Shown here: positions 36,931 through 60,260 of the stretch, one piece after another | How positions within the stretch are numbered: the stretch's first letter is position 1 | Layout: every line of letters begins with the position of its first letter | Source of the DNA: Candidatus Bathyarchaeota archaeon | Lineage (GTDB): Archaea; Thermoproteota; Bathyarchaeia; Bathyarchaeales; Bathycorpusculaceae | Reading direction: 5' to 3' | Length of the DNA stretch: 64,000 nucleotides | Assembly (NCBI GenBank): GCA_963806535.1 | Contig: CAWDYC010000008.1 | Span: 32,001 to 96,000, forward strand | The notes under the pieces: generated by a model | What the model was told of the DNA's origin: nothing | Database searches by the model: none | Seen by the model: only the letters and a program-made list of their open reading frames with translations | Made by a program: the position numbers and the translations under genes

Positions 36931-38095
36931 TTACTGCGTCACGGAGTGGTACCAGCTGATTATGTATTCGGGAAGATTTAAGTCCTCTTTGTCCAAGACG
37001 TTCAGCCAGTTTAACTGGCACTGGACTCAACACGTAGGCTGCTCTTGTGTAGAAGCGTCTTGGAGTAAGCGGTTTTGCTTCTTCTGGCAAAATGATTTTG
37101 AGGTCAGCTTTTTTGGCAAGTGTTGATTCTGCCGAGTTTGTTATTGCGAAATACGGTTCCAGCGAATTTTTTGATTACATCTGCCCAGATGATTACGGGT
37201 CTTGTTTCGCCTGAATATGACAGGAGAATTTCAAGGTCGCCTGCTCTTGGATGCGGAGTGTTAACGCCTCTTGTTATGTACACGTTGTCACCTAGGAAAC
37301 TTTTAATGTGGAAAAGTCTTACGCCTGTCATTTTGGCGATTTCGTTAGCCGTGCCTTTTCCGCCTAGAAACACGTTTGTTCGTTTTTCAAGGATATCAAC
37401 AAGCGTTGTGTACGTTTCAGAATTAACGTTTGAATCTATCATTTCACCGATTTTCTCGAATTCTTCAACACAAAGCCGAAAAACATCGTCAACTTCAAGA
37501 TTTCGGAAAATGGCTTCAATCATACTATTCAAAAGTTCAAGTGTACCTAACTCGAAGATGTCGCCCATCATACCTGTTTCGCTGTATTCAGTGCCGGGTT
37601 TTGATTTGCCACGTCCCTTAAGCTCAACCACGTTGCCATATTTGCTGCATATTTCTCCTAAAGGCGACGATAAAGCAGATGTGAAAAGACCCATGGAAAA
37701 CTTGTTTGATTTCTTTTCCTCAATGTACTTAGCTAAATCTTGAGCCATAACTAAGGGGTCATCCGAATATCCGCTTCCAGAATTTATCAAAAGTAAAGTC
37801 TTCTTGTAACGCCTGCCCAAATCAGCGGCTGCATCATACATGCTTTTTCCTGGAAAACCTGGATCGTCAGGAGTTAAAACCACTTTATTTCGCCAACCAA
37901 CTTGGCTCAAAGCAATTTGACTTAAAGCAGCGTTTAAGGAGTAGAGTGATCTGCCTGATCCTCCGCAGATTACACAGTCAGCTGCTTTTAGATCCTCATA
38001 TAAGGGTGAGAGTTCTCTTTCTTTTAATACTCAAAATGTTTTCTTGGATTTTGTTGACGTATCCGATGCTGCTGATTTTGCTTTTGATTACAACC
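36931..38095 (-). CDS. tandem SIS-domain protein (6-phospho-3-hexuloisomerase-like), frameshifted
   Basis: CGGSGRS, INSGSG, MGDIFE, LSYSGET. Confidence 0.7.
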
Positions 38096-38280
38096 GCACC
38101 TTCAGTTCAAACATGATTTACCGATTCTCTATATTATCCTTGTGCTTGCTAGAATGCAAAAATATCAAGTATCCATTAATCGCTTACTTGCCAGCACGCA
38201 GTTAACGAAGAATTTATCTAAAAATTCTCTAAAAGTTTATATCAAAAGAAAACGCTCACGCAAGAGATAAGTGAAAATCA

Positions 38281-38918
38281 ATGTCAACTCAAACAGGCAC
38301 AGAAAAATTTCAGTTTCTAACCAAACTTAGCTTTAGAGAAAGGGGCTGCAGACGCAAAAATCATTCCAACAAGCAAAGTAGTTGTTGAAGACCGTGTGGT
38401 TCTCAAATGCAAAGTCGGCTGCAATCATTACGGAAAAACATTAGCTTGCCCACCTTACACACCATCAGCGGAAGAATTTAGAAAAATCAGTTAGCGAATA
38501 CAGCTATGCCATGTTCATGAAGTTCAAATCAACTGCGGAAGCCGAACCTGAAGTACTCAAAAAACTTATGGTGGCTGAAACCGATCCCACAGTTCCGAAA
38601 GAAATCAAGGAGAAAGCAGCAAAGTTTTGGGCAGACTGGAAAGATGACAAACGCAAAATGCTGCAATCAGTAGTTGATTTGGAGAAGGCAGCGATGAACA
38701 AAGGCTACAGCTTAGCCATATCTTTTGTTTCAGGTCACTGTCAACTCTGCGAAAAATGCAATACAGAAACAAAGATTTGTGCTCATCCTAATTTGGCTCG
38801 TTGGTCTGAGGATGCGGTCGGAGTGAACGTGAAAAAAACTGCAGCTAACGCTGGGATCGAAGTTACTTTTCCATTTGCGAAGACTCCTGAGTCATTCGCG
38901 CTGCTTCTTATAGATTAG
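38281..38918 (+). CDS. DUF2284-like metal-binding protein, frameshifted
   Basis: KC..GC..YG....CPP; GHCQLCEKC...C..P...R.S..A.G. Confidence 0.8.
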
Positions 38919-38945
38919 AATGATTCTTTGTTATTGTTTGCTTTT

Positions 38946-39342
38946 TTAATTAGGTGGCTTTGCTCGCTGAATTAAGTCATAAAGATTGCCGTAGAGGTCT
39001 TCAAAAACCACTTCTATGCCCCACATTTGCTTCGTTGGTTCTCCATAGAATTTGACGCCTTTCGCTTTCATGGCTTCGTAATCTCGTTTGCAATCATCGG
39101 TCTGCAAAGTCATGAAAACGTGGTCCCCCGCCTGTTTTCCCAACGCTTTTAGCTTCTCTTCCGTATTGGCCAAAACAAAAGTTAATTCCAAATCTGGCTG
39201 GTCTTTTGGCGAAACAGTAACCCAACGCATGTCTTCTCCAAACTTGGTCATCTCGGCATTTTTGGAAACCCAATTTTTCAACGTAAAAACTTAGTGCTTC
39301 ATCAAAATCCTTGACAAGAAGTGTTATGTGACCTATCTTCAT
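38946..39342 (-). CDS. VOC/glyoxalase family protein, frameshifted
   Basis: HITLLV.D.DEAL.FY..KLGF; FEDLYGN. Confidence 0.88.
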
Positions 39343-39408
39343 CTGATTTTACCCTCAAATTAGTTGAATTGAAAAATTGAAAGAAAAATGTTTGCCTAAG
39401 CTAAGAAC

Positions 39409-40161
39409 TTAGGAAGTGTCAAAGGGAGATTTTAAGGCAGTTACAACTTCAACTGGTGAGTCTTCGCCTGATTTTAGCCGTTTCTTCCATTCTTCTCCTA
39501 CAGCGATTAGTGAGAAGATGCCTGAAACTTCAGCCTTCGACTTCTTTACGAGAGTTACGAGTGCTTCTTGTGTTTCGCCGCTTTTAATCATGTCATCTAC
39601 GATTAGGACGCTGTCGCGTTTTTTGATGGCTTCTTTGGGAATGTAGAGTGTTACGGTTACGCCTGAATCTCTTCCTAAAACAAATGTCTCATCGAGGAAG
39701 GCTTTGACGCCGACTTCTTTGTTGCGTTTTGCCACAATAAGGTTAACTCCCAAAGCGTTGGCGACCATGGTGGCTAATGGAATTCCATCAACTGCTGCAG
39801 TTAAAACTTTGGTAACTCTTTTGCCTGCAAAATTTGCTAGTGCATGGTTTGCTGCTTGCTGTAAAATGTTGTAGTCACCGACGATTTCCGTGTTGTCGAA
39901 GTAGCCGATGTCGTCAAATTTTATTCGGCTCCGCAGTTCTGCTTCTAAGCCGACCATTTTGGTGAGGACTCGCCAGAGTTGTTTGGCTCTTGTCGTGTTT
40001 GGTAACACGTGGCCTTTTGCGTATCGGCTAAGTACAGTGACTGGTAATCCTGTTTTTGATGCTAATTCTCGATAAGTAATATTTCGTTTATATTTTGCTG
40101 TTCTTAGCAGTTCGATTGTCATTAAACGAAGTTTCAAATCTTCTGCGTGAGTGCTCATCAA
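39409..40161 (-). CDS. HTH + phosphoribosyltransferase (PurR/APRT-like) protein
   Basis: TYRELA..TGLP.TVLSRY; PRPP motif VLIVDDMIKSGET. Confidence 0.85.
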   Translation of the reverse strand: MMSTHAEDLKLRLMTIELLRTAKYKRNITYRELASKTGLPVTVLSRYAKGHVLPNTTRAKQLWRVLTKMVGLEAELRSRIKFDDIGYFDNTEIVGDYNILQQAANHALANFAGKRVTKVLTAAVDGIPLATMVANALGVNLIVAKRNKEVGVKAFLDETFVLGRDSGVTVTLYIPKEAIKKRDSVLIVDDMIKSGETQEALVTLVKKSKAEVSGIFSLIAVGEEWKKRLKSGEDSPVEVVTALKSPFDTS

Positions 40162-40341
40162 TTAACCCTCAATTCACACTTATGTATATTTACTTGTTAT
40201 TGTAGCTTGCCAATTTATAGCTTTCTGATTAAAACAAACAAGGAATAATTGTTGGTCAGAAAGCCTGATTTAGCAACTTTTTCTATTTGTGCATTAAACT
40301 TTTTAGATAGTAAGTGAAGTCCTATATCAAAAGGGGGACTA

Positions 40342-40887
40342 TTGATGCAGAAGCTCAGCCAATTATTCATGACCGCGCTCTTCGGCTCAATCATTTTCGT
40401 AGTCAACGTTTTTCTGCCTCCCCCATTGAACTATGTTTTAATCGTAGTTGAAGCAGTTCTTCTCGCATTAAGCGGATTATTTATCAGTAAATTAGGCGCT
40501 ACCTATGTGGGAGCAGTTGGAGGTCTCTTAACAGCTCTGGGAAATCCAGCTTTGGGCCCTTTCACCTTTTTCTTTACCCTCTTGTTTGGAGTTTTTGTCG
40601 ATGTATTCTTGTTCGTTTTCAAAATCAACGCTTCCCGCGAAGGCGTAAACCGCAACAGACTGATGGCTGCTATGGCTGTGAGCACCATGTTAATTGGGGT
40701 TTTAAGTTACTCGGCTTTTGCGATGTTTCCACAGTTCATTCCTTTTGCGAAGGGCGCAGGCTTATTTATTCAAAGAAGCACGATGCTTGATGCCTTGGTT
40801 TTGTTTATGGGTCCAGCTACTGGCAGTGTAGCAGGCTACGCTGCTTCCTACCTGTGGAACAAATATCTCCGCCATGTACTCATTTAA
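40342..40887 (+). CDS. membrane protein (ECF S-component-like)
   Basis: 181 aa, 5-6 TM helices, GATYVG..GGLL. Confidence 0.6.
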   Translation: MMQKLSQLFMTALFGSIIFVVNVFLPPPLNYVLIVVEAVLLALSGLFISKLGATYVGAVGGLLTALGNPALGPFTFFFTLLFGVFVDVFLFVFKINASREGVNRNRLMAAMAVSTMLIGVLSYSAFAMFPQFIPFAKGAGLFIQRSTMLDALVLFMGPATGSVAGYAASYLWNKYLRHVLI

Positions 40888-41150
40888 AGAGCTGCTTAAT
40901 TTTCTCGTCAACCAATTTGGCAATCATCAAATTAGAAATAAAAACACACTTAACACCCAAGCAGCTCAGCCAACTCTGCGGGTTTTTGGTCCTGAGTAAC
41001 AAGAATCAAATTGTTTTTTCCAGCGTATTCCACTATATCTCGATCTTTTGCACTTTTCAAACCTGATTCCTGAGCAGTCAGCACTTCGTAGCCTAAGGTT
41101 TCAAAATATTCTTTCAAGCCGGCGTACATTTCGTCAAGTAAAATCTTCAT
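40884..41150 (-). CDS. PIN-like protein (DUF5615/Mut7-C N-terminal), frameshifted
   Basis: MKILLDEM...GY.V...D..I...A......LVTQD. Confidence 0.75.
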
Positions 41151-41320
41151 ATCGCTTCGCTACTCATCTTATCTGATTAGAATACTTAGGTTTAACTTAT
41201 GTATAATTGCCAATGGGTCTTTAATTCATAAATCAAAAACAAACCAGAACACAAACAACAAAAATAATGAGAAAAGTGTTAGGTTGGTCAGGCTCTCAAC
41301 GATTTTTACGATTCAAGTTG

Positions 41321-41462
41321 GTAGCGCCTAGACCTTATTGGACCTTTCCAGACCTTTTTAGACCTTGCCGAACCTTTTAAAACCGCAACCTGCAAAAGAT
41401 TTAAGTTTTATTTCAAAAAAACAGCTCAAAACACAAAAAAAAATTGCACAAAATACCGTCAA
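41321..41462 (-). repeat. solo copy of the core + 10-bp-periodic-tract repeat
   Basis: GACCTT at 41331, 41341, 41351, 41361 and AACCTT at 41371; 41388-41433 is the reverse complement of 49662-49707 at 43/46. Confidence 0.85.
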
Positions 41463-41603
41463 TAACTGACTTCACAACTCAGCCTAACTTTATGAAGATT
41501 GTATTGAACCACCTGATCCCTAATAGATCTGATTCAGTTTAATTCAATGTTAATTACACAAAAAATTTTAAAAAGCAACCCGATATACTGTGACCTGAAA
41601 CTA

Positions 41604-43239
41604 ATGATAAACTCTCCAGTTAAACGGTTCATTTTGCCCTTTTCCCCGGAGAAAAGCAATGAACCAATCGCCTCAGAAGTCGAAGCAGCAGCGGTTTACT
41701 GCGCTTGCAGAGTTTGAAAGAAACAAAGGCGGAGGCTTAATCTTAAAACAGCCAGAAGAAAAACTCCATTTTATTGCGGAAATGGGTTATCCACTGTGGC
41801 TTTTTCCAAATAATCTGATTACCTACATTTTTGACGGCTTAAACAATTTCATCTATTCTATTCCTTATGTTGAATTGCCTACTGCAAAAGTTTTCATGGA
41901 GAACCTTGAGGTAAATTCTAAGACGCGGGAAGATTACATGGCTTTCCTCTCAGACAATAATAGTTATTTTCTGCAACCAATAAAAGAGAAAGAGTTCTCT
42001 CTGAGAAGTTTAATTGTTGATTCAGATTTTAAAAAAGAGTTTGATGTCTACCGTAAAGAAGCCAACAGAAGTTATAGGTCAATTTACAAAGATAGCTTTG
42101 CTGCCTCCGTCTCTTCAAGATGCAACAATTTCTTCAATGATATCTGAAATGAACAGTTTACAATCTTCACTTAAAGAAGATGCTGACAGGTTTCCTGAAT
42201 GCCTAAGACGCGTAAACAAAATAACTAGCCAATACATAACCGAGCTGGATTATGCAGCGGAAGCAGTAAAAGATGAAGCCGCAGCTAAAATCAAAGCTCA
42301 AGAAGAAATCATAAATCCACAAATCTTCAAGCTAAACAGCGAATGCAAACGTCAAATAGCAAAGATAACTGCTGACTTTGATGATGAAATAGATAAACTT
42401 GAAAAACTCAAAGCAAAAACATCAAAAATCGTAGACTTTGAAGAAAAAAAGCTCAAACAGTACGAACATAGCAGCAAAAGAACAAGCCGAACAGAACCAT
42501 TCAATTTATGAAAAAAGATGGAAATCAAAAAGTCGCGAAACCAAGAAAGAAATCAATGGACTTAAGAAAAGAGCTAAAGCAAATAGAAAACAACATTAAA
42601 CATTTAATCAAACAGAAAAATGAGAAAATCTCTGCCCTACGGTTTGAACTTGAAACTAATGTAAAGTTGGCTCGCCAACCATTGCTTGATCTTGAAACTG
42701 TATGTGACGCTAAAATGTTGATTTTTAAGCGAGAAACTGAAAAGTTGCTTAGCCGAGAAAAACCAATAGTTGAAGGGTTGAATCGTGCAATTAAATTGGC
42801 TGAAGGAGTCGTCGATGGTTTCCAAATGTTAGGTATTAGAAACCTACAATTGAATGGTCCAACTCTGTTTTATATCCCATTCTATGTTGCTTGTTATCAA
42901 ACCGGATCAGCAAATCGTTATCTTTTTCTGGCACCATCAATGACAAGTTCTGTTGGTTTTGCTGCGAAACTGAAGGGTGTAATGGGTATTTCGAAAATTA
43001 AAGAGATGTTTAATCCACGGTTCAAGGCTATTGCGACTTTTATTAACAAAGTTCAGGTGATAACTAATCAGAATAGTTTGATGGATCAACAAATTGTTGA
43101 TTTGGGTGAAAGAAATAATCTTTTGAAAAATGAGTTGATTCGCGTTAACATAGAAAAGGGATTAGTTTATTTGAAAGATGCAGGATGGCTTTCGGATCGT
43201 GAATATCAATCGTTAACAAATAGGTTAAATCAATATTAA
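41604..43239 (+). CDS. large coiled-coil protein, several frameshifts
   Basis: Contiguous overlapping ORFs at 41659, 42014 and 42508; GYPLWL N-terminal and YIPFYV C-terminal motifs flank a heptad-rich centre. Confidence 0.7.
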
Positions 43240-43310
43240 CCGATTTCGTCTTCTAAAAAGCCTTATTGCATCGACACTGTTTATCGTTTACAGAAAATGA
43301 ATTGAGATAA

Positions 43311-43730
43311 GTGATCAAAATGAAGAGATACACTGGCAAAACCGCAACGGCGATAATTCCATTTCCAAAGGACAAAATTGTGCTAATTAAACGAAATACT
43401 GTTCCCTTCAAGGGTTACTGGGGGTTGCCAGGCGGCAGAATGGATCCAGGCGAAACCATTGAGCAAACCGTTGTTCGAGAGGTAAAAGAGGAAACAGGAT
43501 TGGATGTTGAAATTGTCCGAAAAATAGGCGAATACATCGAGAAAGGAATCATGGATGATGTGGACTACGAGTACTACCCGACATGTTTTCTTGTTAAAGT
43601 GGTTGGGGGAGAAATGAAGCGGCAAGAAAGCGAAATCCAAGATATCCAGCTATTCAGCCTGCAGGAACTGCCTAAGCCATTGGGGTTCGAACATGATAAA
43701 ATGATTAATGATTACTTACTCGTAAAATAA
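43311..43730 (+). CDS. NUDIX hydrolase
   Basis: Nudix box GGRMDPGETIEQTVVREVKEETG. Confidence 0.93.
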   Translation: MIKMKRYTGKTATAIIPFPKDKIVLIKRNTVPFKGYWGLPGGRMDPGETIEQTVVREVKEETGLDVEIVRKIGEYIEKGIMDDVDYEYYPTCFLVKVVGGEMKRQESEIQDIQLFSLQELPKPLGFEHDKMINDYLLVK

Positions 43731-43762
43731 CGCCGTAGATTTCAGGTTTGCCTTACTTAGTT

Positions 43763-44182
43763 TTATTTTTGCAATTGTTTTTCTAAAGCTTTTCGTACTT
43801 CGGCAACGACCTCTGAGAAGTCTGCTTCTTTTTCAGGCTTCATGCCTTTCTTAGAAACTCTTGCTACGATTTGATAGCCTTTACCTGCTAACCTTTTTTC
43901 CATATTCTTCATGGTTCGCTCATTTCCAAATGCGCGGTAAGTGCAAAATAGAATAACTTTTTTGTCTTGGACCTGGGGCATGTTCTCGATGAAGGTTACT
44001 GTCTCTTTTGCTGGGCTGGCACCTTCAACAGGGGTGCCTAAGATTAGAAGGTCACAGTTTTCGATGGCTGACGGCTGTGCTGAGGCTAAATCGTAGATGG
44101 GTGCTTTTGTTGCGTCAGCTATTGCCTGGGCTAAGCGTTTGGTGTTTCCTGTTCTTGAAAAATAAACTACACAAACGTTCAT
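43763..44182 (-). CDS. flavodoxin-like protein
   Basis: YFSRTGNTK, LGTP. Confidence 0.88.
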   Translation of the reverse strand: MNVCVVYFSRTGNTKRLAQAIADATKAPIYDLASAQPSAIENCDLLILGTPVEGASPAKETVTFIENMPQVQDKKVILFCTYRAFGNERTMKNMEKRLAGKGYQIVARVSKKGMKPEKEADFSEVVAEVRKALEKQLQK

Positions 44183-44382
44183 GGTTTAGAGTGCGCGTAC
44201 TTGGTTTAAATAACCTTCTATATAGAGCCGATGACGACATTCCTTACTGTATAATATTTGCGTTGAAAGAAGAAGCTCGGGGGAAGCACGCATCTTCTTC
44301 AAAACATTCTAAACAATACTTGAGTACATTTAAAAATCTCTTTTTCGTCAGAAAACTTGAAAACAAGAAGCATTGTTGTTAA

Positions 44383-44994
44383 TTGTTGATCCTCACAATG
44401 ATTAACACATTTTATTTGCATTTGGAATTCACAAACAAAAACGGCGATTGGTCCGTTAATTTGCCTTTTTTGTGCACAAAATGTGGCGCATGTTGCTTGC
44501 TAGAGGATTTCTTGTGTGCTGGAGAAATAAACTCCAAACCTGAAGAGCACCTTGAAGTTCATGCCAAAGTAAAAACGCTATTTGAAGAGCTAGGCAAAAT
44601 GTGGGAAGCAGATCATTCAAAATACGACGACTACATCGCGCATACCCTATGTCCATTCCTAGATAACCATGCATGCTCCATCTACAAAATCAGACCTGAC
44701 GGCTGCCGACTTTTCCCAAAAACCGCATTTGGCATGGAAACTCAAGACTGTCCGTCTCTTACCCAATTCAGAAAACAACGTGCAGCGCTGATAAAGAGGA
44801 AAGCTCATAAAGAAACCTACTATTTCATTGGCTCAAACAAAAGTGATGACTCTATAAAGACTACAAAGTTCACTGAAAAGCAATACCGCACTTGCATTGT
44901 CAAAGTACGCCAAGCTGGAATAACAATTGATGAGCAATCTCTGTTTGAATATTTCAATGGAAAAAAGGCAGTTCTTAAAATTTTGAAGAAATAG
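44383..44994 (+). CDS. YkgJ/CxxCxxCC Cys-cluster protein
   Basis: CTKCGACC, CPFL...CSIY..RP..CRLFP; true start probably near 44449. Confidence 0.82.
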   Translation: MLILTMINTFYLHLEFTNKNGDWSVNLPFLCTKCGACCLLEDFLCAGEINSKPEEHLEVHAKVKTLFEELGKMWEADHSKYDDYIAHTLCPFLDNHACSIYKIRPDGCRLFPKTAFGMETQDCPSLTQFRKQRAALIKRKAHKETYYFIGSNKSDDSIKTTKFTEKQYRTCIVKVRQAGITIDEQSLFEYFNGKKAVLKILKK

Positions 44995-45170
44995 ATTTCA
45001 AACCCTAAAAAGAAATTAATTAGTATGCATTATTGCGAAATATCTTAAAAAATATTGAGTGCTGAGTGTGGGTAGCTGCCTCACATGCGTTTGATCCTTC
45101 GCATTCTGGCGGCATCACTTAACACTTTTCCTTTTGATAGCTATCAGTTATTAGATTCACCAAAAGCCAT

Positions 45171-45857
45171 ATGTGTGTTTTGTGTGCAATATTATTGCAG
45201 TGTGTTGCATATATGTCAATAGATTTGAGGTTTTGGGACATAGTAGAGTTTAAACCAAATAAAAGTGAAACCATTGTTCTAGACACGCTAGGAAAAATAA
45301 AATATGGCAATGCATATCAGATTTGGAAAAGTTCAGGCTTAAAATATTATCCCACCGTTTTACGCACTATTAAGAAACTGCAGAAAAGAAAACTTGTAGG
45401 CACGATTGAGAAAAGAAGCGGATTGCATGGGGAGACTTTATTTTCTTCCACAATTCAAGGAATTTTAGTTTATTACGTATTTAATAACAAAGATGAATCG
45501 ATATTTCAACTAATGAAAGAAGAGTCGGGGTTATTTAATCAATTAAGTAAATTACCAATTGCCAAAGAAATTGCTCTTGATGCTGCGAAAGATATTATTC
45601 TAAATTCCAAGAAAAATTCTGAAGTTTACATTGATGACGCCATTAAGTCAGTAAGCAATGATTTAATTCATAATGATGTTTTTGAATATATTTTTAATAG
45701 CAATAAGGATTCACTGTCAAAAATTCTGGAGCTTTCAAAAATTGAAGGGCTGAAACCAATTGTATTGAAAAACATAGAAGATGAAAAAAACGGAATTGCT
45801 ATAGCTCTTAAGAACCTCAATGAATTAAAAACTTTATTGAATTTGACTGGATATTAA
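45171..45857 (+). CDS. hypothetical protein with N-terminal wHTH, AT-rich
   Basis: YQIWK...YPTVLRTIKKL..RKLV. Confidence 0.6.
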   Translation: MCVLCAILLQCVAYMSIDLRFWDIVEFKPNKSETIVLDTLGKIKYGNAYQIWKSSGLKYYPTVLRTIKKLQKRKLVGTIEKRSGLHGETLFSSTIQGILVYYVFNNKDESIFQLMKEESGLFNQLSKLPIAKEIALDAAKDIILNSKKNSEVYIDDAIKSVSNDLIHNDVFEYIFNSNKDSLSKILELSKIEGLKPIVLKNIEDEKNGIAIALKNLNELKTLLNLTGY

Positions 45858-45864
45858 TCAATGA

Positions 45865-46671
45865 TTATACATTGGGTTTGTGTGCTTCTACTTCTATGCG
45901 CATCATTCCAACATGAACAACGCCTTCATTGTCCGAAGGATGTCGTTCAATGTAGCAGTTAACGATTAATTCGACGAATTTTGGTCTAAGCTCTATCGGT
46001 ATCCTGTCAGTGAACGGTAGCCAAGTAGTCCTTACCCATCCAGCTAAGCCTTCTGCACCGTTAAACTTCATATCTTTAGGAAACAACTCAATCCGTTCAG
46101 CCAACAGACCCGCCTGCTGCATAAACGTTGTATATTCTTCGGCATCGTAGAAGCCATAGGGAAAAGCCATATTGCCAAAAAAGCTTTTCCAAGGCTCAAC
46201 AGCCAATAGTTCGTTTATGAGGCTAAGTATGTCTTTGGCGTTGCCTTTGCCAGCCATTTGAAAAAGCATTCTTCCGCCCGGCTTTAAGCTTCTTTGTACG
46301 CCTGTAAGAACTGCATTTTGGTCAACAATCCAGTGTAGCGCAGCATTAGAAAAAACAATATCGAATTCCGATTTGAAAGTTAATTTTCGGGCGTCCATAA
46401 CTTGGAAACAAAGGTTTGGGTAGTCTTTTTGTGGGAACGCTTTTTTTGCTAAATCTATCATTTTTTCTGAGCTGTCGATGCCGACTGCCCTGCCTTTGGG
46501 TAGACATCTTGCAAGTTCTGCCGTGATTTTGCCGTTGCCGCAGCCAATATCCAGCAGGGCTTCGTTTCCTTGGAGATTTAGTTTTGGAATTAATTCTTGG
46601 GCCCATTGGAACTGGTTTTGGCTATTTTTAGCGTAATCTTGAGCGTTCCAGTTATAACCGATATGCGCCAT
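45865..46671 (-). CDS. SAM methyltransferase (Tam-like)
   Basis: LLDIGCGNG, FSNAALHW, LKPGG. Confidence 0.88.
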   Translation of the reverse strand: MAHIGYNWNAQDYAKNSQNQFQWAQELIPKLNLQGNEALLDIGCGNGKITAELARCLPKGRAVGIDSSEKMIDLAKKAFPQKDYPNLCFQVMDARKLTFKSEFDIVFSNAALHWIVDQNAVLTGVQRSLKPGGRMLFQMAGKGNAKDILSLINELLAVEPWKSFFGNMAFPYGFYDAEEYTTFMQQAGLLAERIELFPKDMKFNGAEGLAGWVRTTWLPFTDRIPIELRPKFVELIVNCYIERHPSDNEGVVHVGMMRIEVEAHKPNV

Positions 46672-46681
46672 TCTTTAGCAC

Positions 46682-47233
46682 TTACTTGAAAGTTAACTGG
46701 GAAACCGAGTAGTAAACGATTTCGCCTCTGCGGTTCATGACGGCTAAGGTTAGCTCTTTCTTTTGGTTTTGACTCTGTTGCACTGCTCCAGCTAACTCGT
46801 CTATACCGAGAGGTTTGCCTTCTTGCATACTTAAAACCAAGTAAGGTGCTGTATCTTTGCCGTAGGCTCCTCGCTCGTACATTCGAAAATCAATTCCCGC
46901 CCCGAAACCTTCCCTCGCAACGTATCCGCGGCTTCTGAGGTCACGGTAAACCATGTAGCTAACCCATGCATTATCATTTTGTGCTTCGTAGCAGTGAAGT
47001 AAGGTTTGGAAATCAGCGACTTTGCAATTTTCATCTTTGACTTCAAGCATGCCTTTATCCATAAGGTACAGAGATTCAAAAAAGGTAAGAGTGAAAACTT
47101 TGTCTTCTAAAGTGCCATATCCACGTGTGATAAGTGCATCAATGCTGCTCTGCTCAACCACGATAACCCCTTTTTTTGCTAAGGTGCCGCTGGTTCTGAA
47201 TTCTGGAGGCTGGTTCTTTTTGTTTTCGCTCAT
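46682..47233 (-). CDS. endA: tRNA splicing endonuclease subunit, probably non-catalytic/structural
   Basis: L...ESLYL, VYRDLRSRGY, G.DFR.Y, GEIVYY; catalytic Tyr and His not evident. Confidence 0.8.
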   Translation of the reverse strand: MSENKKNQPPEFRTSGTLAKKGVIVVEQSSIDALITRGYGTLEDKVFTLTFFESLYLMDKGMLEVKDENCKVADFQTLLHCYEAQNDNAWVSYMVYRDLRSRGYVAREGFGAGIDFRMYERGAYGKDTAPYLVLSMQEGKPLGIDELAGAVQQSQNQKKELTLAVMNRRGEIVYYSVSQLTFK

Positions 47234-47390
47234 CAGTTAAATCAACCGTAATACGTCCATTTTGGGTTTGTTAACTCTTTAACGTTTCCCAGCCGAATTT
47301 TCATTTTTTATCATTTATTGAAAATAAGAGACATGATAGTTTGCTCTAATTTGATGGGAATTTTTGTGTAATTAGGTAACAACTTATCGC

Positions 47391-47873
47391 TTATACTGAT
47401 TCGGAGACTTCTTTAGCCCATTTCCTTGCAGCGCTTAGTTCTTCGGTATTTGGGTGGCCATTCGCATTATGCCCTATGAGACGGGAAATGCCGCGAGTCA
47501 TGAATGTATGTCCTTCACCTTGGCATTCATAGCAGCTTTCAAGTGTTCTTTGACCTTTCGCTTCAATTGCCGTTTTTATTTTGTCAAAGGCAGGTTTATC
47601 GCTTGTTCCACGACCAAACCAAGTCATAAAAACCGCAAATTGCCTGCTGTTAGTTAGATTTATTTCATTAAGGTAGTTAAGCATATCAGCATTCGGCTTA
47701 GCTGCATAAACACCAGTTCCAACAAAAACCAACTCAAAATCGTTCAAGTCCAAGATCGATGAATCAAAATCCTTGTTTATCTTTACACATTGGCAGTTTA
47801 GCTCAGAAGAAATTTCTTTAGCAATTTTCTCAGTGTTGCCTCCTTTAGAAGAAAAAAGAACAATTGTTTTCAC
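47391..47873 (-). CDS. flavodoxin-like protein
   Basis: SSKGGNTEKIA, GTGVY, GHP...L..A..WA. Confidence 0.85.
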   Translation of the reverse strand: MKTIVLFSSKGGNTEKIAKEISSELNCQCVKINKDFDSSILDLNDFELVFVGTGVYAAKPNADMLNYLNEINLTNSRQFAVFMTWFGRGTSDKPAFDKIKTAIEAKGQRTLESCYECQGEGHTFMTRGISRLIGHNANGHPNTEELSAARKWAKEVSESV

Positions 47874-48053
47874 AACTCTAACCTCATCGTCTGTTTGTAT
47901 TTATTTGCTAAAAAGCCTTTGCATCAGATAAGAATTGCATAAAGAAACTTATTACTCAAACGGAAAAAAATTCATCTTCTTAAGGTATGAAAACAGGTCT
48001 CTAAACATTGTTTGCGATTTCTACAAAAGAATAGGAAAGGAAGGCTTAAACTA

Positions 48054-49082
48054 CTATTTTTTGAATGATTCGAAGTCTTTGCTGTAGTAAACGTGGGTTT
48101 CGCAGATTATGGCTGACACGTATTTTAACGGTGTTATGTCGAAGGCGGGGTTCATAACGTTGACTCCGTCTGGAGCAATCTGCACTGAGCCGATGTGTGT
48201 GACTTCTTCCGGTTTGCGCTCTTCAATAATTACGTCTGCGGCTTTGTGTGCGAGGTCGAAGGTGGATTTTGGTGCTGCAACATAGAACGGTATGCCATGT
48301 TCATGCGCAAGGACTGCCACTGAGTAAGTGCCGATCTTGTTAACCACCCCATCTTGAACTATGCGGTCAGAGCCAACAATAACTTTGTCAACAAGCCCTT
48401 TGCTCATAACGTAGCCCGCCATATTGTCCGTAATAAGCGTAACAGGAATGCCATCGCGTTTAAGCTCGTAAGTCGTAAGCCTAGCACCCTGCAAAAGCGG
48501 ACGGGTTTCGTCAGCGATAACTTTAATTTTTTTGCCTTGCTCGCAAGCCGCTCGAACCACACCCAATGCTGTGCCGTATTCCACAGTCGCAAGTTCGCCT
48601 GCGTTACAGTGAGTCAAAATTGTATCGCCGTCATCTATGAGAACTGAACCGTTTTTGCCGATTGCCCGGTTCTGAGCTGCATCTTCATCGGCTATCTTCT
48701 GAGCTTCCTCAACGATGGCTGTTTTAAGCCCTTCCATATTTCCTGAGTAGGCTTGGGCTTTGTTTAGGACTCGGTCTACTCCCCAAAACAGGTTCACAGC
48801 TGTGGGTCGTTGACGTTTGATAATTGAGCCGGCAGCTTCCAATTCTGATAGCAGTTTCTTTTTGGTTTTTGCTTTTGAATGGTAAGCTGCTAATGCAACG
48901 CCAAAGCCAGCAGCTGCACCCAGCAGAGGAGCACCCCTGACGCGGAGGGTTTTAATGGCTTCAGCCATCTGCTTAACCGTTTTAATTTCCAAAGTCACTT
49001 CTTGGAGAGGAAGTTTGGTTTGATCCGGTGTTATTACTGTGCCGTTTTGCCACTTAATCATCCGCATTTTGATGTTCCCCAA
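48054..49082 (-). CDS. mtnA: S-methyl-5-thioribose-1-phosphate isomerase
   Basis: VRGAP, RPTAVNL, THCNAG.LAT..YGTA, ETRPLLQGARLT, NKIGT. Confidence 0.92.
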   Translation of the reverse strand: MGNIKMRMIKWQNGTVITPDQTKLPLQEVTLEIKTVKQMAEAIKTLRVRGAPLLGAAAGFGVALAAYHSKAKTKKKLLSELEAAGSIIKRQRPTAVNLFWGVDRVLNKAQAYSGNMEGLKTAIVEEAQKIADEDAAQNRAIGKNGSVLIDDGDTILTHCNAGELATVEYGTALGVVRAACEQGKKIKVIADETRPLLQGARLTTYELKRDGIPVTLITDNMAGYVMSKGLVDKVIVGSDRIVQDGVVNKIGTYSVAVLAHEHGIPFYVAAPKSTFDLAHKAADVIIEERKPEEVTHIGSVQIAPDGVNVMNPAFDITPLKYVSAIICETHVYYSKDFESFKK

Positions 49083-49185
49083 CGTTGTTATTATGCTTAG
49101 TCAATTATGGTTCTGTTTAATATTTCGGCAGTTTTAAGAAAAAACTTCATGTTCGACATAATCATGTTTTTCTTCATTTTTGTAA

Positions 49186-49750
49186 TTTGTGTTTTGGATT
49201 GCTTTTTTGCTTTGGGTATTGATTCGTTTGCAGGTTGCGTCTTTAAATGTGAGAAAATGTGAGGATCTGTAAAAATCTGTAAAAAAATGTGAGAAAAAGG
49301 AAGAAAAAGGAAGAGATAGGCCGGTCTATTGCTTCCTGGAAGTTGTGACGGTTTTTTGGCAGTGTTTTTTCTTTGTGTTTTGAGCTTCTTTTTTGTTTCA
49401 AAGCTTGATTTCTCTGCAGGCTGCGTCTTTATCCCTCTCTACCCGCCTCCCTCCGTCTGTGTCCGTCTCCTTGTGTCCCAAAGGGCTATTGACAGATTTT
49501 TTGGCAGGGATTTTTCTTTGCGTTTTAGATTGCTTTTTTGTTTTGGGGCTTAGTTTGGTTGCAGGTTGATACATTTTTTGACAATATTTGACATTTAGAA
49601 GTTTAGGTCTAGCTAGAAAGAGAAGTTTTAGAAAATGTTTTCAACGTAAAAAACATCAGTTTGTTTTGAGTTGTTTTTTTGAAATAAAACTTAAATCTTC
49701 TACAGGTCGTGTCTAGATTCGTCCCAAAAAGTCCCAAAATGCTTAGAATT
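49186..49750 (+). repeat. tandem array of 4 units, each a conserved T-rich core ending CAGG(T/C) plus a variable 10-bp-periodic tract
   Basis: CAGG anchors at 49231, 49417, 49562 and 49703; tracts read in 10-bp register. Confidence 0.85.
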
Positions 49751-49781
49751 AAAGATAAAAATGTCAATCAAAATTTTGGTG

Positions 49782-51118
49782 TCAATTACCTCTGAAAAAA
49801 TCTGTGATTTTCTTTTGGAAAAGAGCTTTCTTCAACAATTCACTCTGCCTTATCCACCGGTGAATTGGAATCTCAAACCTGCCAGCAATGAACTGCAAAG
49901 ATTCAGCCAAGCTTTTGAAAAGATAAGGTTTTTGACGCATAGCATTCCTAACATTTTCACGTACCTGCCAAACGCCAATTGGCATGATGTAACCGGGTCT
50001 TGCCTCCCTTAGCACAATAACAGTGGCTTGGCGCCGTTCCCGAACCAATTGTTCGCAAGTAGCCAACCGCGCCGAATAGTAGCAGCCGCCAATCAGAGCA
50101 TATGTAGTTCGTCCACTGTTACCTTCCCAATCAGAAAAGATTGCGATGTTTTTTCCAGTCGGATTCCAAGTTGTGCCTGGAAACCAGGCTTCCATAGATT
50201 CGTAACTCCATTGCTGCGGAATCATTAAAATCTCAAAAACATTATCCATATAGACGGATTCGTAAACCCTGAATTCGTTGATTTCAGGAAAAGTCTTCAC
50301 TTGTTCTCTTAGGTTTTTGGATATGATGTCATCAACAGCAGTAATGCTCCAGCGAGTAGGAACAAGCTTCCTGTTTTTTTCAATACCAAAAGCGCCAACG
50401 CTGAAGGCTTTCTGAATTTTTGAAACCACAACGCCTCGATTAAAAAGTTCCAAAACTGCCTGCGTCGCCTTCAAATCAGTATCGTAATATGCTTTCTCAA
50501 TTTTATCATCGTACCTTGAATTGCCGACATGCAAGTCTCGAATTGGCGCTGAAGGACCAAATGGTTGAATATCATCGTCAAGAAAAATTGAGCCTCTTGG
50601 TTTTTTGGTGAGGTTCAATTCAATGTCTACACTGCTGTCGGCGAGGGCTAATTCACGTGTTTGATCTAAGATTTTGCCGCATCCGTGAATTTTTGCACGT
50701 TAACTCTATGTTTGCCACGTACAAGCAAACTACGGAAACCTACAATTTCATCCATGGATTTTCCAAACCAATGCTCGGGTAAATCGTAAATGCTTGTATC
50801 CTCATGAACCGGGGGCACGAGTGGTCCAGCGTAAACATTTGGGTATCCGATTCTTCCGATAAAAACGCTTGGCGGAGACATACCAGCAATATCCTCACCC
50901 ATTAATGGCACGCTTTTGAGGAAATAGTTGACTTTTAGCATTATTGAACAACGAGTTTTTCCGCAGAGAAAACGTGCACCTTTACATAAGACACATAAGC
51001 TGTCTTGTCGGCTTCGAGTAACAATTTGGTTTTCGTCAAAGCCGCTGTGACTTTTTAAGATGTCTTTTAACCAATTGTCTGAGCCGCGAATGTTTGAAAG
51101 TGAAGTTGTGGAAGTCAT
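49782..51118 (-). CDS. nre: Nre family DNA repair protein, frameshifted
   Basis: C..CKG...LCG...C, SPPSVFIGR.GYP, LVPTRWSITAVD, GGCYY, GVWQVRE, C-terminal PIP box QKKITDFF. Confidence 0.9.
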
Positions 51119-51201
51119 GTTACACTTTCATGATGATTATGACGGCTTGATATGTTTTTCCACCAAGTTTAACGCAATAAACCAGACATTTTGCCTTTAA
51201 A

Positions 51202-51786
51202 TTATCGTCCTTTGCCAGTGGTTAGCATCCGTGACTTCCTAATTGCTTTTCTAACTGGCGGTGGCAACATCGTTTTAACAACATCGGCTGTCTTCCAAAG
51301 TCTAAAAAGCCCTGGAGGCGCTAGGCTTGCATCTACGATTTTTAGGTTCCCATTTACGTTTCGAATATTGTCGCACGTTATGTCCAACAGACCATATTTA
51401 TTGGCAATAGCTTTAAGCTGGACTAAACCTTCAGCCGAAGCCTCTGCTTCGACACCGTATTCTTGCAAGAGACAATACTTAGTGTGCCAAAAGACCCTGG
51501 CGAAATAAATTTGCCTTAAGTTTGCTGGAAGTTGCTTGTACGCTTTATGATCCAATTCTATGGCTTGGGCTTTTCCAGTCTTTAATGCTAACTCGTGACT
51601 TTTATGCTGGATGTGAAAAACAAGTTTATGTAAACCAAAGTTTACCAAAACAGCGTCGGGAAAAGCTGTCGTAATAATCTTTTCCAAGTTGTTCATTGGA
51701 ACAAAACTGGTTCTTTTTGCCTCTATGTAAGCATCTATTAAATTGTCTACAAGCCTTGCTTTTTCATGCAAGGATTTGAATTTCAC
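51202..51786 (-). CDS. minimal protein-kinase-like fold protein
   Basis: G..K.VF...LALK, LLQEY, DITCDNI, KIVD. Confidence 0.5.
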   Translation of the reverse strand: MKFKSLHEKARLVDNLIDAYIEAKRTSFVPMNNLEKIITTAFPDAVLVNFGLHKLVFHIQHKSHELALKTGKAQAIELDHKAYKQLPANLRQIYFARVFWHTKYCLLQEYGVEAEASAEGLVQLKAIANKYGLLDITCDNIRNVNGNLKIVDASLAPPGLFRLWKTADVVKTMLPPPVRKAIRKSRMLTTGKGR

Positions 51787-51829
51787 ATTCTATAGAGAGC
51801 GGTTTCTGGTTGAATTAGCTTTGTGACTG

Positions 51830-52459
51830 TTAAAACACAACAACAGTAGATAAGGAAATCAAAAAAATGAAGAAATATTCTGAGAGCGAAATCAACCTTT
51901 TTTGGTAAACAATAAAATGCCATAGTTCTTGTAAGGCAATAAGCTTTTCAAGTTTAAAATTTACGGCTTCAATTTCAGCCTTCAATTTGTCTGGATTTTG
52001 AACTGGCGCCCCAGGAAAGATACCCTTCTTTATAATTTCTACAATTACCAACTTTCCCTCTTGCTTCAAGACTCTGCCAAACTCTTTCAAAACAACTTCG
52101 TTATCACCGACCTCATGATAAACCGTGACAAGAAGAATCATGTCAACAAGCCCTCTTTCAAGCTGAAGACTTTTTCCGTCGCTTTGCAAAAACTCAATAT
52201 TTTTCACTCCTGCTTTCTCGGCTTTTCTTTGGGCTTTTTTAAGCATCTCAGGCGAAAGATCAACTGCCACAACCTTTTTTGCTTTTTTTGCAAGCTCTAT
52301 CGTATAGTAGCCTGGTCCGCATCCAAAATCCACAACTACATCGGTTGGGTTTATGGCAAGTTTTTCTACAAGTTCAGTGGGCGGTTGAATTAACCGTCTT
52401 ATCGGATTATCCAAAAAGATGGCGCCCGACGCTGAATAGGCTTCTCCTTTATGTGACAT
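51830..52459 (-). CDS. class I SAM methyltransferase, C-terminal frameshift
   Basis: VDFGCGPG, AVDLS, YHE, RVLK..G. Confidence 0.88.
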   Translation of the reverse strand: MSHKGEAYSASGAIFLDNPIRRLIQPPTELVEKLAINPTDVVVDFGCGPGYYTIELAKKAKKVVAVDLSPEMLKKAQRKAEKAGVKNIEFLQSDGKSLQLERGLVDMILLVTVYHEVGDNEVVLKEFGRVLKQEGKLVIVEIIKKGIFPGAPVQNPDKLKAEIEAVNFKLEKLIALQELWHFIVYQKRLISLSEYFFIFLISLSTVVVF

Positions 52460-52598
52460 TTTTTTGATTCTCCATTAAACTGAAGTTATATTCAATAGCC
52501 GCTATTTCTTAAAGAATATGCTTAGTTTGAAGTTCCAGCAATTTGTCCAAGCGCTTAATGTTTAATAGTTGCTCGGTAAACTATCTTTTTGACAACTC

Positions 52599-55236: not shown

Positions 55237-55344
55237 ACCGAGTTTATCCATTTTTTACGAGAATGACTTAGTTGCTCGTTGAAAAAATGAATTTTGGCAA
55301 GAACCTTCTGCCTTTTTTCTCTATTTTAAAAAGCCCAAAAAAAA

Positions 55345-56340
55345 CTAATTCGTTTTCTGGTATTTCCTTAGTGTTTGGATGGCTTTTTGTGCCCATTCAT
55401 TATCTCTCCAAAAAGCTCGACCTACCGCCACCAAATCCACTTTGCCCTCACTTACCAATTTATCTGCAAAAATAGCGTCGGTAATTCCGCCCACTCCAAT
55501 GATGGGAACGCTAACTGCCTTCTTGATTTCACTTGCCTGAGGAACAAAATAGCCCTTTACATGCTTTAACTGCTTTGGTTCGCTTCCACACATCCCGCCA
55601 GACACATCTATGATATCAACACCTGACGTCTCAAGCTTCTTGGCAAACACAACAGAATCCTCGATACGCGTTCCGCCTGGAGCTAAATCATCTGAACCTA
55701 ACCTGTAGAGCAAAAGCTTGCCATTGAGTTTCTTAAGTACTTTTTCAACAACCAACAGGGGAAATTTCATTCGCTTCTCCAGAGAGCCACCGTACTCATC
55801 ATCACGCTTGTTTAGCAATGGCGAAAAGAACTGATTAAGCAGGTATCCGTGTGCTCCATGAAGCTCAACCCCGTCCAAACCAGCCTTAACCGCGCGTTCA
55901 GCAGCCAAAGCGAAATCCTCGGCAATCGATTCGATCTCGCTAACTTCCAGCATCCGTGTTTTTGGTCTTGCCGAGGGTCCTGCTGGTTCGGTGCCGATGA
56001 CTTTTTTGTTTGTAACTCCGCCGGCATGCGATATTTGAACAACTGCAGGAACGCCAACCTCATGCAAACCCTTCGCAAGCTTCTCAAAACCGCCAATTAG
56101 CGAGTCAGCATAAATTCCTAGTTGTTTTGGCCCTATTTTTCCAGTCGGTGAAACGTACGCGTGCTCAACAATAGGCAAACCCAACGCTGAGGAACGGCGC
56201 ACATAAAAATTAATGAGTCTGTTGGTTACGACGCCTTCAAAACTAGCTCTTCCCGATTGCATCGGCGGCATAACAATTCGATTTCTAAGAGTATAACCCT
56301 TCACCTTCAAAGGCTCAATTAATCTAGGCAAACACGACAC
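55345..56340 (-). CDS. NADH:flavin oxidoreductase (Old Yellow Enzyme family)
   Basis: NRIVMPPM, ELHGAHGYLL.QF.SP..NKR.DEYGG. Confidence 0.92.
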   Translation of the reverse strand: MSCLPRLIEPLKVKGYTLRNRIVMPPMQSGRASFEGVVTNRLINFYVRRSSALGLPIVEHAYVSPTGKIGPKQLGIYADSLIGGFEKLAKGLHEVGVPAVVQISHAGGVTNKKVIGTEPAGPSARPKTRMLEVSEIESIAEDFALAAERAVKAGLDGVELHGAHGYLLNQFFSPLLNKRDDEYGGSLEKRMKFPLLVVEKVLKKLNGKLLLYRLGSDDLAPGGTRIEDSVVFAKKLETSGVDIIDVSGGMCGSEPKQLKHVKGYFVPQASEIKKAVSVPIIGVGGITDAIFADKLVSEGKVDLVAVGRAFWRDNEWAQKAIQTLRKYQKTN

Positions 56341-56455
56341 CGTTTCTATGAATGGAAACCAAAGCGCTATAATAACATATCAAAATTGAGGGTTGAAATC
56401 GAGGTTGTGTGAGAGTATTTTTAAAGTTGGATGATGAATTAAGGAAGACCAAATT

Positions 56456-57145: not shown

Positions 57146-57203
57146 ATATTATTTAGACTACAACAATTCACGTGAAGCTCCTAAACTTCTAGCATTGATA
57201 TGT

Positions 57204-58330: not shown

Positions 58331-58337
58331 ACGACCT

Positions 58338-59989: not shown

Positions 59990-60107
59990 TTTGACATCAT
60001 TATCACAGGTTGCTTCTTGAAGATCTGATTACATCTGAGAATAGGTTTGATATTTAAGCCTTGATTCGAAAAGAATTTTGGGCTTAAAGAGATAAGAATA
60101 ATAGGAA

Positions 60108-60185
60108 TGGCGCCCAGGCCGGGATTTGGACCCGGGTCCTTCGGGCGACAGCCGAATATACTGGACCGAACTATACTACCTGGGC
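60108..60185 (-). tRNA. tRNA-Asp (GTC), CCA encoded
   Basis: GCCCAGG/CCTGGGC acceptor, TTCGG-CTGTCGC-CCGAA anticodon arm, discriminator G; T-loop reads TCCAAAT. Confidence 0.92.
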
Positions 60186-60260
60186 ATAAGCGCCGCAACA
60201 ATACACGATAATTCAACTAATTAATGTTTCTCGGAAAAACTGTTTGCATCAAACCTAATG

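Follow-up and report, generated by a model that had tools for sequence, protein, structure and literature searches.

Introduction

Among described systems, MraZ and its operator come closest in layout to the element reported here. Passages of two reports place direct repeats with a period of 10 bp between the mraZ promoter and the gene, with the transcription start lying inside the first box (PMC12957436; PMC8475190), and one of them states that MraZ governs its own expression and that its site in Mollicutes consists of a row of direct repeats within the promoter region of mraZ (PMC8475190). Self-regulation by binding to repeats near the promoter is described, in a section of another report, as a habit of the AbrB-like family, and in the same section PhS018 figures as an archaeal protein related to AbrB-like domains that is uncharacterised and for which DNA recognition is predicted (PMC4333400). 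According to a passage of a further source, PhS018 is a RIFT-barrel protein, and the RIFT fold is also present in ribosomal proteins (PMC11258233). In this study, a stretch of 64,000 nucleotides (nt) from a Candidatus Bathyarchaeota archaeon (contig CAWDYC010000008.1, positions 32,001 to 96,000; hereafter the window) was analyzed, which contains near 41.4 kb a solo cassette composed of a T-rich core and a tract of 10-nt units. By analogy with MraZ, it appears reasonably probable (roughly 60%) that this type of cassette is the promoter and operator array of a PhS018-like protein and that the copy near 41.4 kb is an orphan. In the literature searches made for this study, no paper was found which ties Bathyarchaeia to intergenic tandem repeats.

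A dispersed cassette family and its gene

The genome to which the window belongs (G000; 2.95 Mb in 12 contigs, approximately 40% G + C, 92% complete) was searched for further copies of the cassette. BLAST with the core yielded 47 matches, and iterated nhmmer searches expanded the family from 8 over 58 to 110 copies (E ≤ 0.01), which are located on all 12 contigs. Further copies do thus exist and the family is dispersed, as the first-pass annotation of the window had claimed. The 110 copies form 79 intergenic loci, namely 56 solo copies, 16 doublets, six triplets and a single quadruplet, the latter being an array in the window at 49.2–49.7 kb. Copies within arrays are spaced by 106–247 nt, and the genome-wide density amounts to about one copy per 27 kb. 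Outside of open reading frames (ORFs) of at least 90 amino acids (aa) lie 100 of the 110 copies, the gene calls for this count and for the orientation counts being crude longest-ORF approximations. The flanking genes of 78 scored loci are oriented opposite/opposite (29 loci), same/same (22), opposite/same (14) or same/opposite (13), i.e., the cassettes are randomly oriented relative to their neighbors. As these classes mirror the genome-wide mix of intergenic types, the idea of the cassettes being promoters of neighboring genes was ruled out.

Anchored on its end, the core has the consensus TTTgTTcTTTgTGTTTt.ggTTGcTTTTTTG.TTtaggg.TTgatTtgTTTGCAGGtTGcG, which is followed by Tc...A.a.Gt....aaa.Gt..., i.e., by a G(T) every 10 nt. 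This periodicity is strict: the mean lag-10 match of the 110 tracts is 0.555, with 88 of them exhibiting z > 2, and all other lags between 3 and 19 reach at most 0.32. On the sense strand the cores contain 51.5% T and the tracts 41% A, and within the first 60 nt of the tract a run of at least five T occurs in 21 copies and a run of at least five A in 73 copies. Clustering grouped the tracts into 15 clusters of at least two members and 27 singletons, but this clustering is crude, lumps related box types and serves only for description. Cassettes are concentrated on contig C10 (133 kb), which carries 22 of the 110 (about one per 6 kb). At four sites of the genome (C4:413250-414300, C5:365090-366250, C11:6300-7350 and C6:104900-106720) a composite of about 1 kb was observed, comprising two or three cassettes and a small convergent zinc-ribbon ORF, which we take to resemble the carrier protein LysW. 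These composites are segmental duplications that take cassettes along.

Behind many tracts of related genomes the sequence ATGCCGTTAAC... (reading MPLT...) is found. In G000 the same sequence opens an ORF of approximately 92 aa at four sites, and frameshifted or decayed versions of it are found at others. A tblastn search with the four products detected nine loci in this genome, and at all nine of them a cassette is located on the same strand. The distance between the core end and the gene match is 72–112 nt at eight loci and 264 nt at one 3′ fragment, and the gene starts about 10–40 nt past the end of the tract. A profile of 33 homologues was matched by a gene or pseudogene downstream of 10 of the 110 cassettes when the forward frames were searched (covering the nine loci), compared to 0 of 110 in a reverse-strand control. 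Hence, every copy of the gene in G000 is equipped with a cassette, while about nine in ten cassettes come without a detectable gene. Some of these orphans retain remnants of the first codons or a decayed ORF. Judged from its sequence context, the cassette does not appear to be a free-standing repeat, but rather a control region located upstream of the genes of a small family. No conserved downstream partner gene, no partner toxin and no dcw/rsmH cluster could be found at the six gene loci of G000 that were inspected.

The type of the tract tracks the subfamily of the protein across species: GTCAA-type tracts occur with ...FKRPLEGCNKVQVPK, GTAC-type tracts with ...QKQNRLQVPKLVRWKYKVE and CGTTG-type tracts with MPLTEKVTFT. 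Among the paralogues of G000, the gene at C11:63733-64005 is preceded by GTCAA-type boxes, the one at C6:39788-40063 by GTAC-type boxes and the one at C4:368188-368466 by TGTGTG-type boxes. As tract types pair with downstream protein subfamilies and recur across species, the suggestion made from the window that tracts might be generated independently does not hold. The pairing fits with a co-evolution of protein and boxes, without proving recognition.

Occurrence in the genus and in the class

A pattern scan of 185,579 species genomes yielded at least 106 matching stretches, and among the 80 matches listed, 74 were titled Candidatus Bathyarchaeota or Bathyarchaeia, originating from metagenome-assembled genomes (MAGs) of bog, peat and soil. 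A real core was confirmed by nhmmer in 98 of the at least 106 stretches, and the eight stretches without it include records of Sodalis, Sphingomonas, Chitinophaga and Planctomycetota. The neighboring genes in the window are archaeal as well (a tRNA-intron endonuclease, Nre and an IF-2B-family protein). Using a 91-nt BLAST query, matches were obtained in 14 of 24 genomes of the same genus, several of which exhibited 7–28 matches, and in one of 16 genomes from other families of the order. With the protein profile, the gene family was also detected elsewhere in the genus, namely in 36 of 60 other genomes, as a rule with several copies and many pseudogenes.

For 29 stretches upstream of the gene, taken from other genomes of the genus and from G000, a core match on the gene strand was found in 24, ending 48–163 nt before the start codon. 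The best lag (among 6–15) was 10 in 25 of the 29 stretches, and 23 of them beat shuffled sequences at p ≤ 0.05. In the class at large, the gene is present in 22 of 301 genomes (G000 included), among them members of other families. Another 16 upstream stretches originate for the most part from different genera and families of the class. In these, the extended T-rich core was not evident by eye, yet a TATA-type box and three to six 10-bp direct repeats could be seen; the best lag was 10 in 10 of the 16, p ≤ 0.05 was likewise reached by 10, and the box sequences were quite different. As repeats with a 10-bp period are located upstream of the gene in other families too, it appears that periodic boxes accompany the gene across lineages while the sequence of the boxes changes.

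Some additional observations were made in these genomes. A stretch titled Candidatus Acidoferrum sp. (L047) contains a full cassette together with the 92-aa gene and is probably a Bathyarchaeia contig that was binned into a bacterial MAG. In six further stretches from relatives (L060, L067, L076, L107, L123 and L141) some tracts are perfect arrays of five to at least nine identical 10-mers, or of 20-mers, which points to recent expansion by slippage, unlike the diverged units in G000. Several short-read contigs of G013, the nearest sampled relative of G000, have one of their ends about 170 nt away from a cassette (C16, C43, C46, C53 and C54, with matches starting at about position 160–180), and the family thus seems to break short-read assemblies.

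A promoter-like box at a fixed position of the core

G000 has 39 tRNA genes, and for many of them a box of the AAAGCTTAAAT(A) type was seen by eye about 25–35 nt ahead of the mature 5′ end. Related hexamers are among the most enriched ones at positions −60 to −20 of 1535 long ORFs (TAAATA, 103 vs. 29; TTAAAT, 109 vs. 42). In the cassettes, the tract is preceded by a box CTTAAAT whose first letter lies at −22. All seven positions of the box match in 11 of the 110 copies, six or more in 31 and five or more in 54, and 41 of these 54 carry it exactly at −22, whereas the box reaches at most four of seven matches in 56 copies. The solo copy near 41.4 kb contains a perfect CTTAAAT (41405-41399). The first-pass annotation had pointed out a B recognition element (BRE)/TATA-like AAATAAAACTTAAAT in this core, and this is corroborated by the same box being located upstream of the tRNA genes of the genome and by its constant offset within the family. 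The core is therefore best described as a predicted promoter of the archaeal BRE/TATA type.

In archaea, transcription starts at a characteristic distance (about 22–27 nt) downstream of the TATA box. As the box is located at a fixed place, this usual spacing predicts a start 8–11 nt into the tract, where the G at tract position 10 is kept in at least 80% of the copies. For the solo copy, the predicted start thus falls at 41374-41377, in agreement with the start at the tract that the first-pass annotation had proposed.

The 92-aa protein is predicted to resemble PhS018

Alignment of the homologues revealed two similar halves with the motifs QVPKLVRWQFKLEP and GRITIPK. R26, W27, K30, G61 and R62 are invariant and sit in the QVPKLVRW and GRITIP motifs. 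The AlphaFold2 model of the protein (pLDDT 91, pTM 0.83) has PhS018 from Pyrococcus horikoshii (2GLW) as its top structural match (Foldseek E = 7.6e-4, TM 0.70, probability 1.00). With VIA-align, 84 of the 92 residues were aligned to 2GLW (Z 11.3, root mean square deviation 2.3 Å), followed by 2D9R (PG0164; Z 9.0) and by structures with Z ≤ 6.8. By overall alignment, the model superposes on the PhS018-like RIFT barrel, a six-stranded fold made of two β-α-β halves, and a profile search against the sequences of the PDB also retrieved 2GLW (E = 0.051). PhS018 shares with the protein its length of 92 aa and an internal two-fold symmetry besides this weak profile similarity, but the sequence identity between both is only 17–18%. 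A prediction of the protein as homodimer scored 0.00 compared to a mark of 0.42. Based on the predicted model, the 92-aa protein is a PhS018-like RIFT barrel and probably binds DNA.

Its relation to the AbrB, SpoVT, MazE and VapB proteins is reflected in the GRITIP- and QVPK..R-type motifs and in some of the names given to homologues by the Joint Genome Institute, as nine of 67 are named AbrB-type regulator or antitoxin, and one is named MraZ. The AbrB looped-hinge-helix model TIGR01439 matched 15 of 33 members (best E = 0.0032), with about 15 bits compared to a cut-off of 28.3, and the SpoVT-AbrB family of Pfam gave no match at E ≤ 1. AbrB, SpoVT, MazE and VapB are homodimers, whereas the protein described here is a single chain with two halves. 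The cut-offs of the MraZ families were likewise not reached, with Pfam PF02381 matching two of 33 members (best E = 0.0037), TIGR00242 matching one (E = 0.012) and neither matching the member from the genome of the window.

The tract as a candidate operator array

As the layout of the gene-bearing cassettes mirrors that of MraZ and its boxes spaced by 10 bp, the reading proposed here is that of an operator array (the tract) with its promoter (the core). In the proposed mechanism, the T-rich core would supply the promoter, and the tract behind it would present direct repeats that are one helical turn (10 bp) apart; in the complete form, the tract would be followed within about 10–40 nt by the PhS018-like gene. 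Each box would be bound by one molecule of the protein encoded in the same cassette, both across the transcription start and shortly downstream of it, and the promoter of the gene would be repressed in this way, as is that of mraZ by MraZ at its GTG(G/T)-N6 boxes. The divergence of paralogues would have gone along with that of their boxes and would have given rise to the different tract types. In this genus, cassettes have become far more numerous than the gene.

Several features are common to both systems. In both, a small protein of two halves with AbrB-like motifs is encoded directly behind its own promoter, a predicted one in the case of the cassette, with a row of direct repeats of 10-bp period, each made up of a short conserved box and a spacer, between promoter and gene, here at nine of nine loci in G000. 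A start at the first box has been shown for MraZ and is predicted for the cassette. MraZ represses itself, which is the activity proposed here by analogy. However, there are also clear differences: the family cut-offs are not reached and the predicted fold is far closer to PhS018, the host is an archaeon, there is no dcw or rsmH context, MraZ has three to four boxes while the cassettes contain three to nine, and many paralogues with different boxes exist alongside roughly 100 gene-less cassettes per genome. In its layout, the system thus appears to resemble MraZ and its boxes functionally, without the protein being a member of the MraZ family.

The predicted start also bears on a different level of control, at which the protein would bind the repeats within its own 5′ untranslated region and thereby control translation or stability of the mRNA. 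A start at about tract position 10 would place units 2 to n in the 5′ leader, the tract ends 10–40 nt before the start codon, and the RIFT fold occurs in ribosomal proteins, as the passage on this fold states (PMC11258233). We nevertheless regard this as quite improbable, since 10 bp correspond to one turn of duplex DNA, since MraZ binds duplex DNA in the same layout even though its start is also located in box 1 (as given in the passages on MraZ cited above), and since the AbrB-like motifs are DNA-binding motifs in characterized relatives, as described in a section of PMC4333400.

The helical period itself could also be a matter of DNA shape, with phased A-tracts curving the DNA or positioning archaeal histones beside a T-rich, histone-excluding core, and with the link to the protein being incidental. 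Boxes of about 5 bp containing G/C do alternate with A-rich spacers of about 5 bp in an exact 10-bp period over 40–90 bp, G000 encodes two histone-fold proteins, and alternating A/T and G/C motifs are preferred by archaeal histones according to a passage of PMC10151503. However, A-tracts are missing from some types of tract, e.g., from array unit 2 of the window (CCCTCTCTACCCGCCTCC...) and from the CGTTG and TGTGTG types. As DNA shape alone explains neither the tracking of protein subfamilies by box types nor the strand asymmetry, it is very improbable as the main explanation.

Orphan cassettes: conservation, decay, gain and loss

Gene-bearing cassettes differ from the 101 others by a higher core score (46 vs. 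36 bits), a stronger periodicity (0.66 vs. 0.55) and a better box (mean 5.78 vs. 4.47 of seven positions; Mann–Whitney p = 0.005, which is overstated as the copies are related). Many orphans can be read as relics because of these poorer TATA boxes, lower core scores and weaker periodicity. For the copy near 41.4 kb and the four units at 49.2–49.7 kb, all of which lack a detectable gene, both possibilities have to be considered, i.e., that they are relics or that they are stand-alone regulated promoters.

Two orthologous orphan cassettes could be compared between G000 and G013. Their cores are 86–89% identical and their tracts 62–69%, with gains and losses of whole units, which agrees with the initial proposal that tracts change faster than cores. 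The coding DNA around these orphans is 84–89% identical, and the flanks are with 45–60% at noise level. In the case of unit 1 of the array in the window, the orthologous core in G013 carries a different type of tract behind it. This is the outcome that recombination within the shared core would give.

Gain and loss of the cassette were followed at two loci on contig C7, both of which are filled in G000 as well as in G013. At locus 1, at most 17 nt separate the genes in two other genomes (G016 and G019) and a third one (G003) contains unrelated DNA; at locus 2, no cassette could be seen by eye in any of these three. Compared to the empty site, a filled site carries about 445 extra nt and not a discrete unit of 150 nt. 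Target-site duplications, which had been suggested as a check, were not seen at the two filled/empty loci inspected, nor were terminal inverted repeats or defined ends. These observations are central for judging whether the cassette is a selfish, non-autonomous element akin to miniature inverted-repeat transposable elements (MITEs), whose promoter would be incidental and which would have no function for the host. The high number of 110 intergenic copies in random orientation, the differing presence at the orthologous C7 sites and the fact that G013 and another relative (G023) carry different cassettes in opposite orientations at the same intergenic site would all suit such an element. Yet, besides the lack of element ends and the size of the filled site, no hairpins are present and several copies contain decayed remnants of the gene, which points to duplication and decay of a module and not to transposition. 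An origin as a MITE-like element is therefore considered highly improbable.

Repetitive extragenic palindromes (REP), bacterial interspersed mosaic elements (BIME) and MITEs of bacteria are dispersed intergenic repeats that drive rearrangements. Like these, the cassette is short, intergenic, present in high copy number and sometimes arranged in tandem, and it serves as recombination substrate and breaks short-read assemblies. Unlike them, it has neither palindromes nor terminal inverted repeats. It is directional and combines a promoter-like box with a variable periodic tract, and its origin appears to be the control region of one particular gene family.

The cassettes, orphans among them, might also be stand-alone genes for small RNAs, each firing an A-rich, unstructured RNA of about 60–130 nt with 10-nt repeats, e.g., as sponge for an RNA-binding protein or as antisense regulator of convergent neighbors. 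This is unlikely on balance. The promoter-like box at a fixed offset, the strand asymmetry in A content and in runs of T and A, the random orientation relative to neighbors, which suits autonomous units, and the conservation of orphan cores between species are all in line with it. However, a search of the 64-kb window with Rfam 15 at gathering score revealed three tRNAs only, and the RNA structure of the solo copy was not better than that of shuffled sequences (fold z-scores +0.43 and +1.42). A possible stem between the core and the 3′ part was rejected as well, since the complementarity of the mid-core to the downstream 110 nt (mean score 6.6) showed no excess over shuffles (6.0). Furthermore, the strict 10-nt period has no obvious rationale for an RNA and fits the helical repeat of DNA, and, on average, TATA boxes are poorer and the periodicity is weaker in orphans compared to gene-bearing copies.

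A further, rather speculative possibility, to which we give somewhat limited weight, is that the approximately 100 gene-less cassettes form the regulon of fast-diversifying PhS018-like repressors. Each paralogue would read its own type of box and would act in trans on stand-alone promoters, dozens of them, the products of which would be short repeat RNAs or antisense transcripts. If true, this would represent a natural library of orthogonal repressor–operator pairs, and the cassette would spread and swap tracts by recombination through the shared core.

A number of observations weigh against the cassette being a promoter and operator array of the PhS018-like protein. The protein itself reaches no curated cut-off of Pfam or NCBIfam, a MraZ–DNA complex appears among its structural matches only weakly (9sz7_K, rank 34, TMq 0.44), and no tested function of PhS018 was found in the literature searched. 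Most cassettes (100 of 110) lack a detectable gene. As several tract types come without an intact cognate gene in a genome that is 92% complete, most copies cannot be accounted for by autoregulation. The protein subfamily is co-inherited with the tract type as a linked module, so that their association alone does not show recognition. With a start at about +10, most boxes would also be transcribed, and a role at the level of RNA is thus conceivable. A significant 10-nt periodicity is missing in six of the 16 wider upstream stretches and in four to six of the 29 from the genus. Finally, orphan cores are as conserved as coding DNA (86–89%) while their flanks are at noise level, which simple decay does not predict. 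These cores are either still used or homogenized by exchange between copies.

The solo copy near 41.4 kb and the inversion next to it

The features of the solo copy and of the segment beside it are compiled in Table 1. The six units in 10-nt register were found on the minus strand exactly as the first-pass annotation had quoted them, from 41383 to 41325. They can be read as operator boxes because of the analogy with gene-bearing copies and with the MraZ boxes. Within 70 nt after the core, the lag-10 match is 0.52 compared to 0.308 ± 0.067 for shuffles (z = 3.1). The quoted sequence reads TTGACGG... from 41462, and the core terminates in GCAGGTTGCG (41393-41384). The motif 5′ of the core is also found in many other solo or first-of-array copies and in the orthologue of G013, and its T-run could terminate incoming transcription. 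Unlike some other orphans, the solo copy has no recognizable remnant of first codons or of a decayed ORF behind its tract. That this tract is a fifth distinct one was partly confirmed: it is of a GGTC type unlike the four tracts of the array, but it is not unique, since tracts related to it can be aligned from other copies and crude clustering groups four further copies with it.

Table 1. Coordinates of the solo cassette and associated features within the window.
Feature	Position	Strand	Remarks
Solo cassette	41325-41465	minus	T-rich conserved core, then six 10-nt units
Upstream motif TTATTGACGG-T-run-GTGCA	41442..41465	minus	read from sequence
Conserved T-rich core, 63 model positions	41384..41446	minus	nhmmer match C8:73446-73384, 45.3 bits
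BRE/TATA-like box AAATAAAACTTAAAT	41399..41413	minus	same type as the tRNA-gene promoter box of this genome
Tract, six 10-nt units GTTTTAAAAG GTTCGGCAAG GTCTAAAAAG GTCTGGAAAG GTCCAATAAG GTCTAGGCG	41325..41383	minus	proposed operator boxes, by analogy
Predicted transcription start	41374..41377	minus	22-25 nt after the TATA-like box
First T5 run past the tract	41260..41264	minus	possible archaeal terminator, ~110 nt past the predicted start
Four-unit array of the same cassette	49166..49750	plus	core ends 49239, 49425, 49570, 49711; four different tracts
Segment inverted relative to G013	41415..49245		BLAST of L159, L160, L161, L162 vs. window, and junction sequences

The core of the solo copy forms an inverted pair with that of array unit 4 (41388-41433 and 49662-49707), which is complementary at 43 of 46 nt (93%), exactly as noted from the window alone. 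Weaker inverted pairs exist with unit 2 (66 nt, 76%) and unit 1 (29 nt, 83%). The copies near 41.4 kb and at 49.2–49.7 kb point outward, and it had been proposed to check the segment between them for an inversion. This check was positive, with the segment being inverted relative to three relatives (G013, G023 and G003). In G013 the order is reverse (49777-61279), 41415-49245 forward and reverse (37149-41198), with both joints inside cassette cores, and the joint between 49.8 kb and 41.5 kb is common to G023 and G003. In its upstream half, the solo copy is the orthologue of a cassette of G013 that points at the Nre gene, and the CCCAAAA-type tract adjoining Nre is kept in G000 and G013. At this site G023 has a different cassette in opposite orientation, and G003 has none.

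The simplest reading of these sequences is that a stretch of about 7.8 kb was turned around in the lineage of this genome when two similar cores in inverted orientation recombined, and that the 43/46 identity of the solo copy and unit 4 is a trace of this event. The conserved cores would thereby act as dispersed homology for recombination, with one event between inverted cores having turned the segment from 41.4 to 49.2 kb. No recombinase gene could be detected by Pfam within the inverted segment. As a formal alternative, the apparent inversion might result from an assembly error.

Some neighboring features deserve mention. The Nre gene is split into two ORFs on the minus strand (49782-50618 and 50666-51118), of which one contains positions 1–96 of Nre_N and the other positions 119–270 together with Nre_C. 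Either the gene is frameshifted or a pseudogene, or the assembly is in error here. On the plus strand at 41659-43239, three ORFs that overlap (162, 165 and 243 aa) have no Pfam match; the region is conserved in relatives, and frameshifts may have broken up what is a single gene. The solo cassette is followed after about 170 nt by a 66-aa ORF (40950-41150, minus strand), which matches only the first half of the DUF5615/Mut7-C/PIN-like domains (profile positions 1–56 of 110) and looks truncated. Farther away, two tRNA-Gly(GCC) genes are located about 1.75 kb apart at 14034-16182 with duplicated flanks (direct repeats D3-D5).

Implications

The PhS018-like family serves as a model for the early evolution of protein folds and is listed as uncharacterised, as passages of two reports state (PMC11258233; PMC4333400). 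By analogy with MraZ, the arrangement described here would provide this family with a concrete and testable function, i.e., that of self-regulating binders of boxes spaced by 10 bp. It would extend a MraZ-like layout of promoter, boxes and gene to uncultured archaea, in which many paralogous versions with different boxes occur, and these paralogous cassettes would offer a natural resource for following the joint change of repressor and operator specificity. At the same time, it would account for a very abundant family of repeats in Bathyarchaeia from soil and peat, one that reshapes the order of genes, as the 7.8-kb inversion in the window illustrates.

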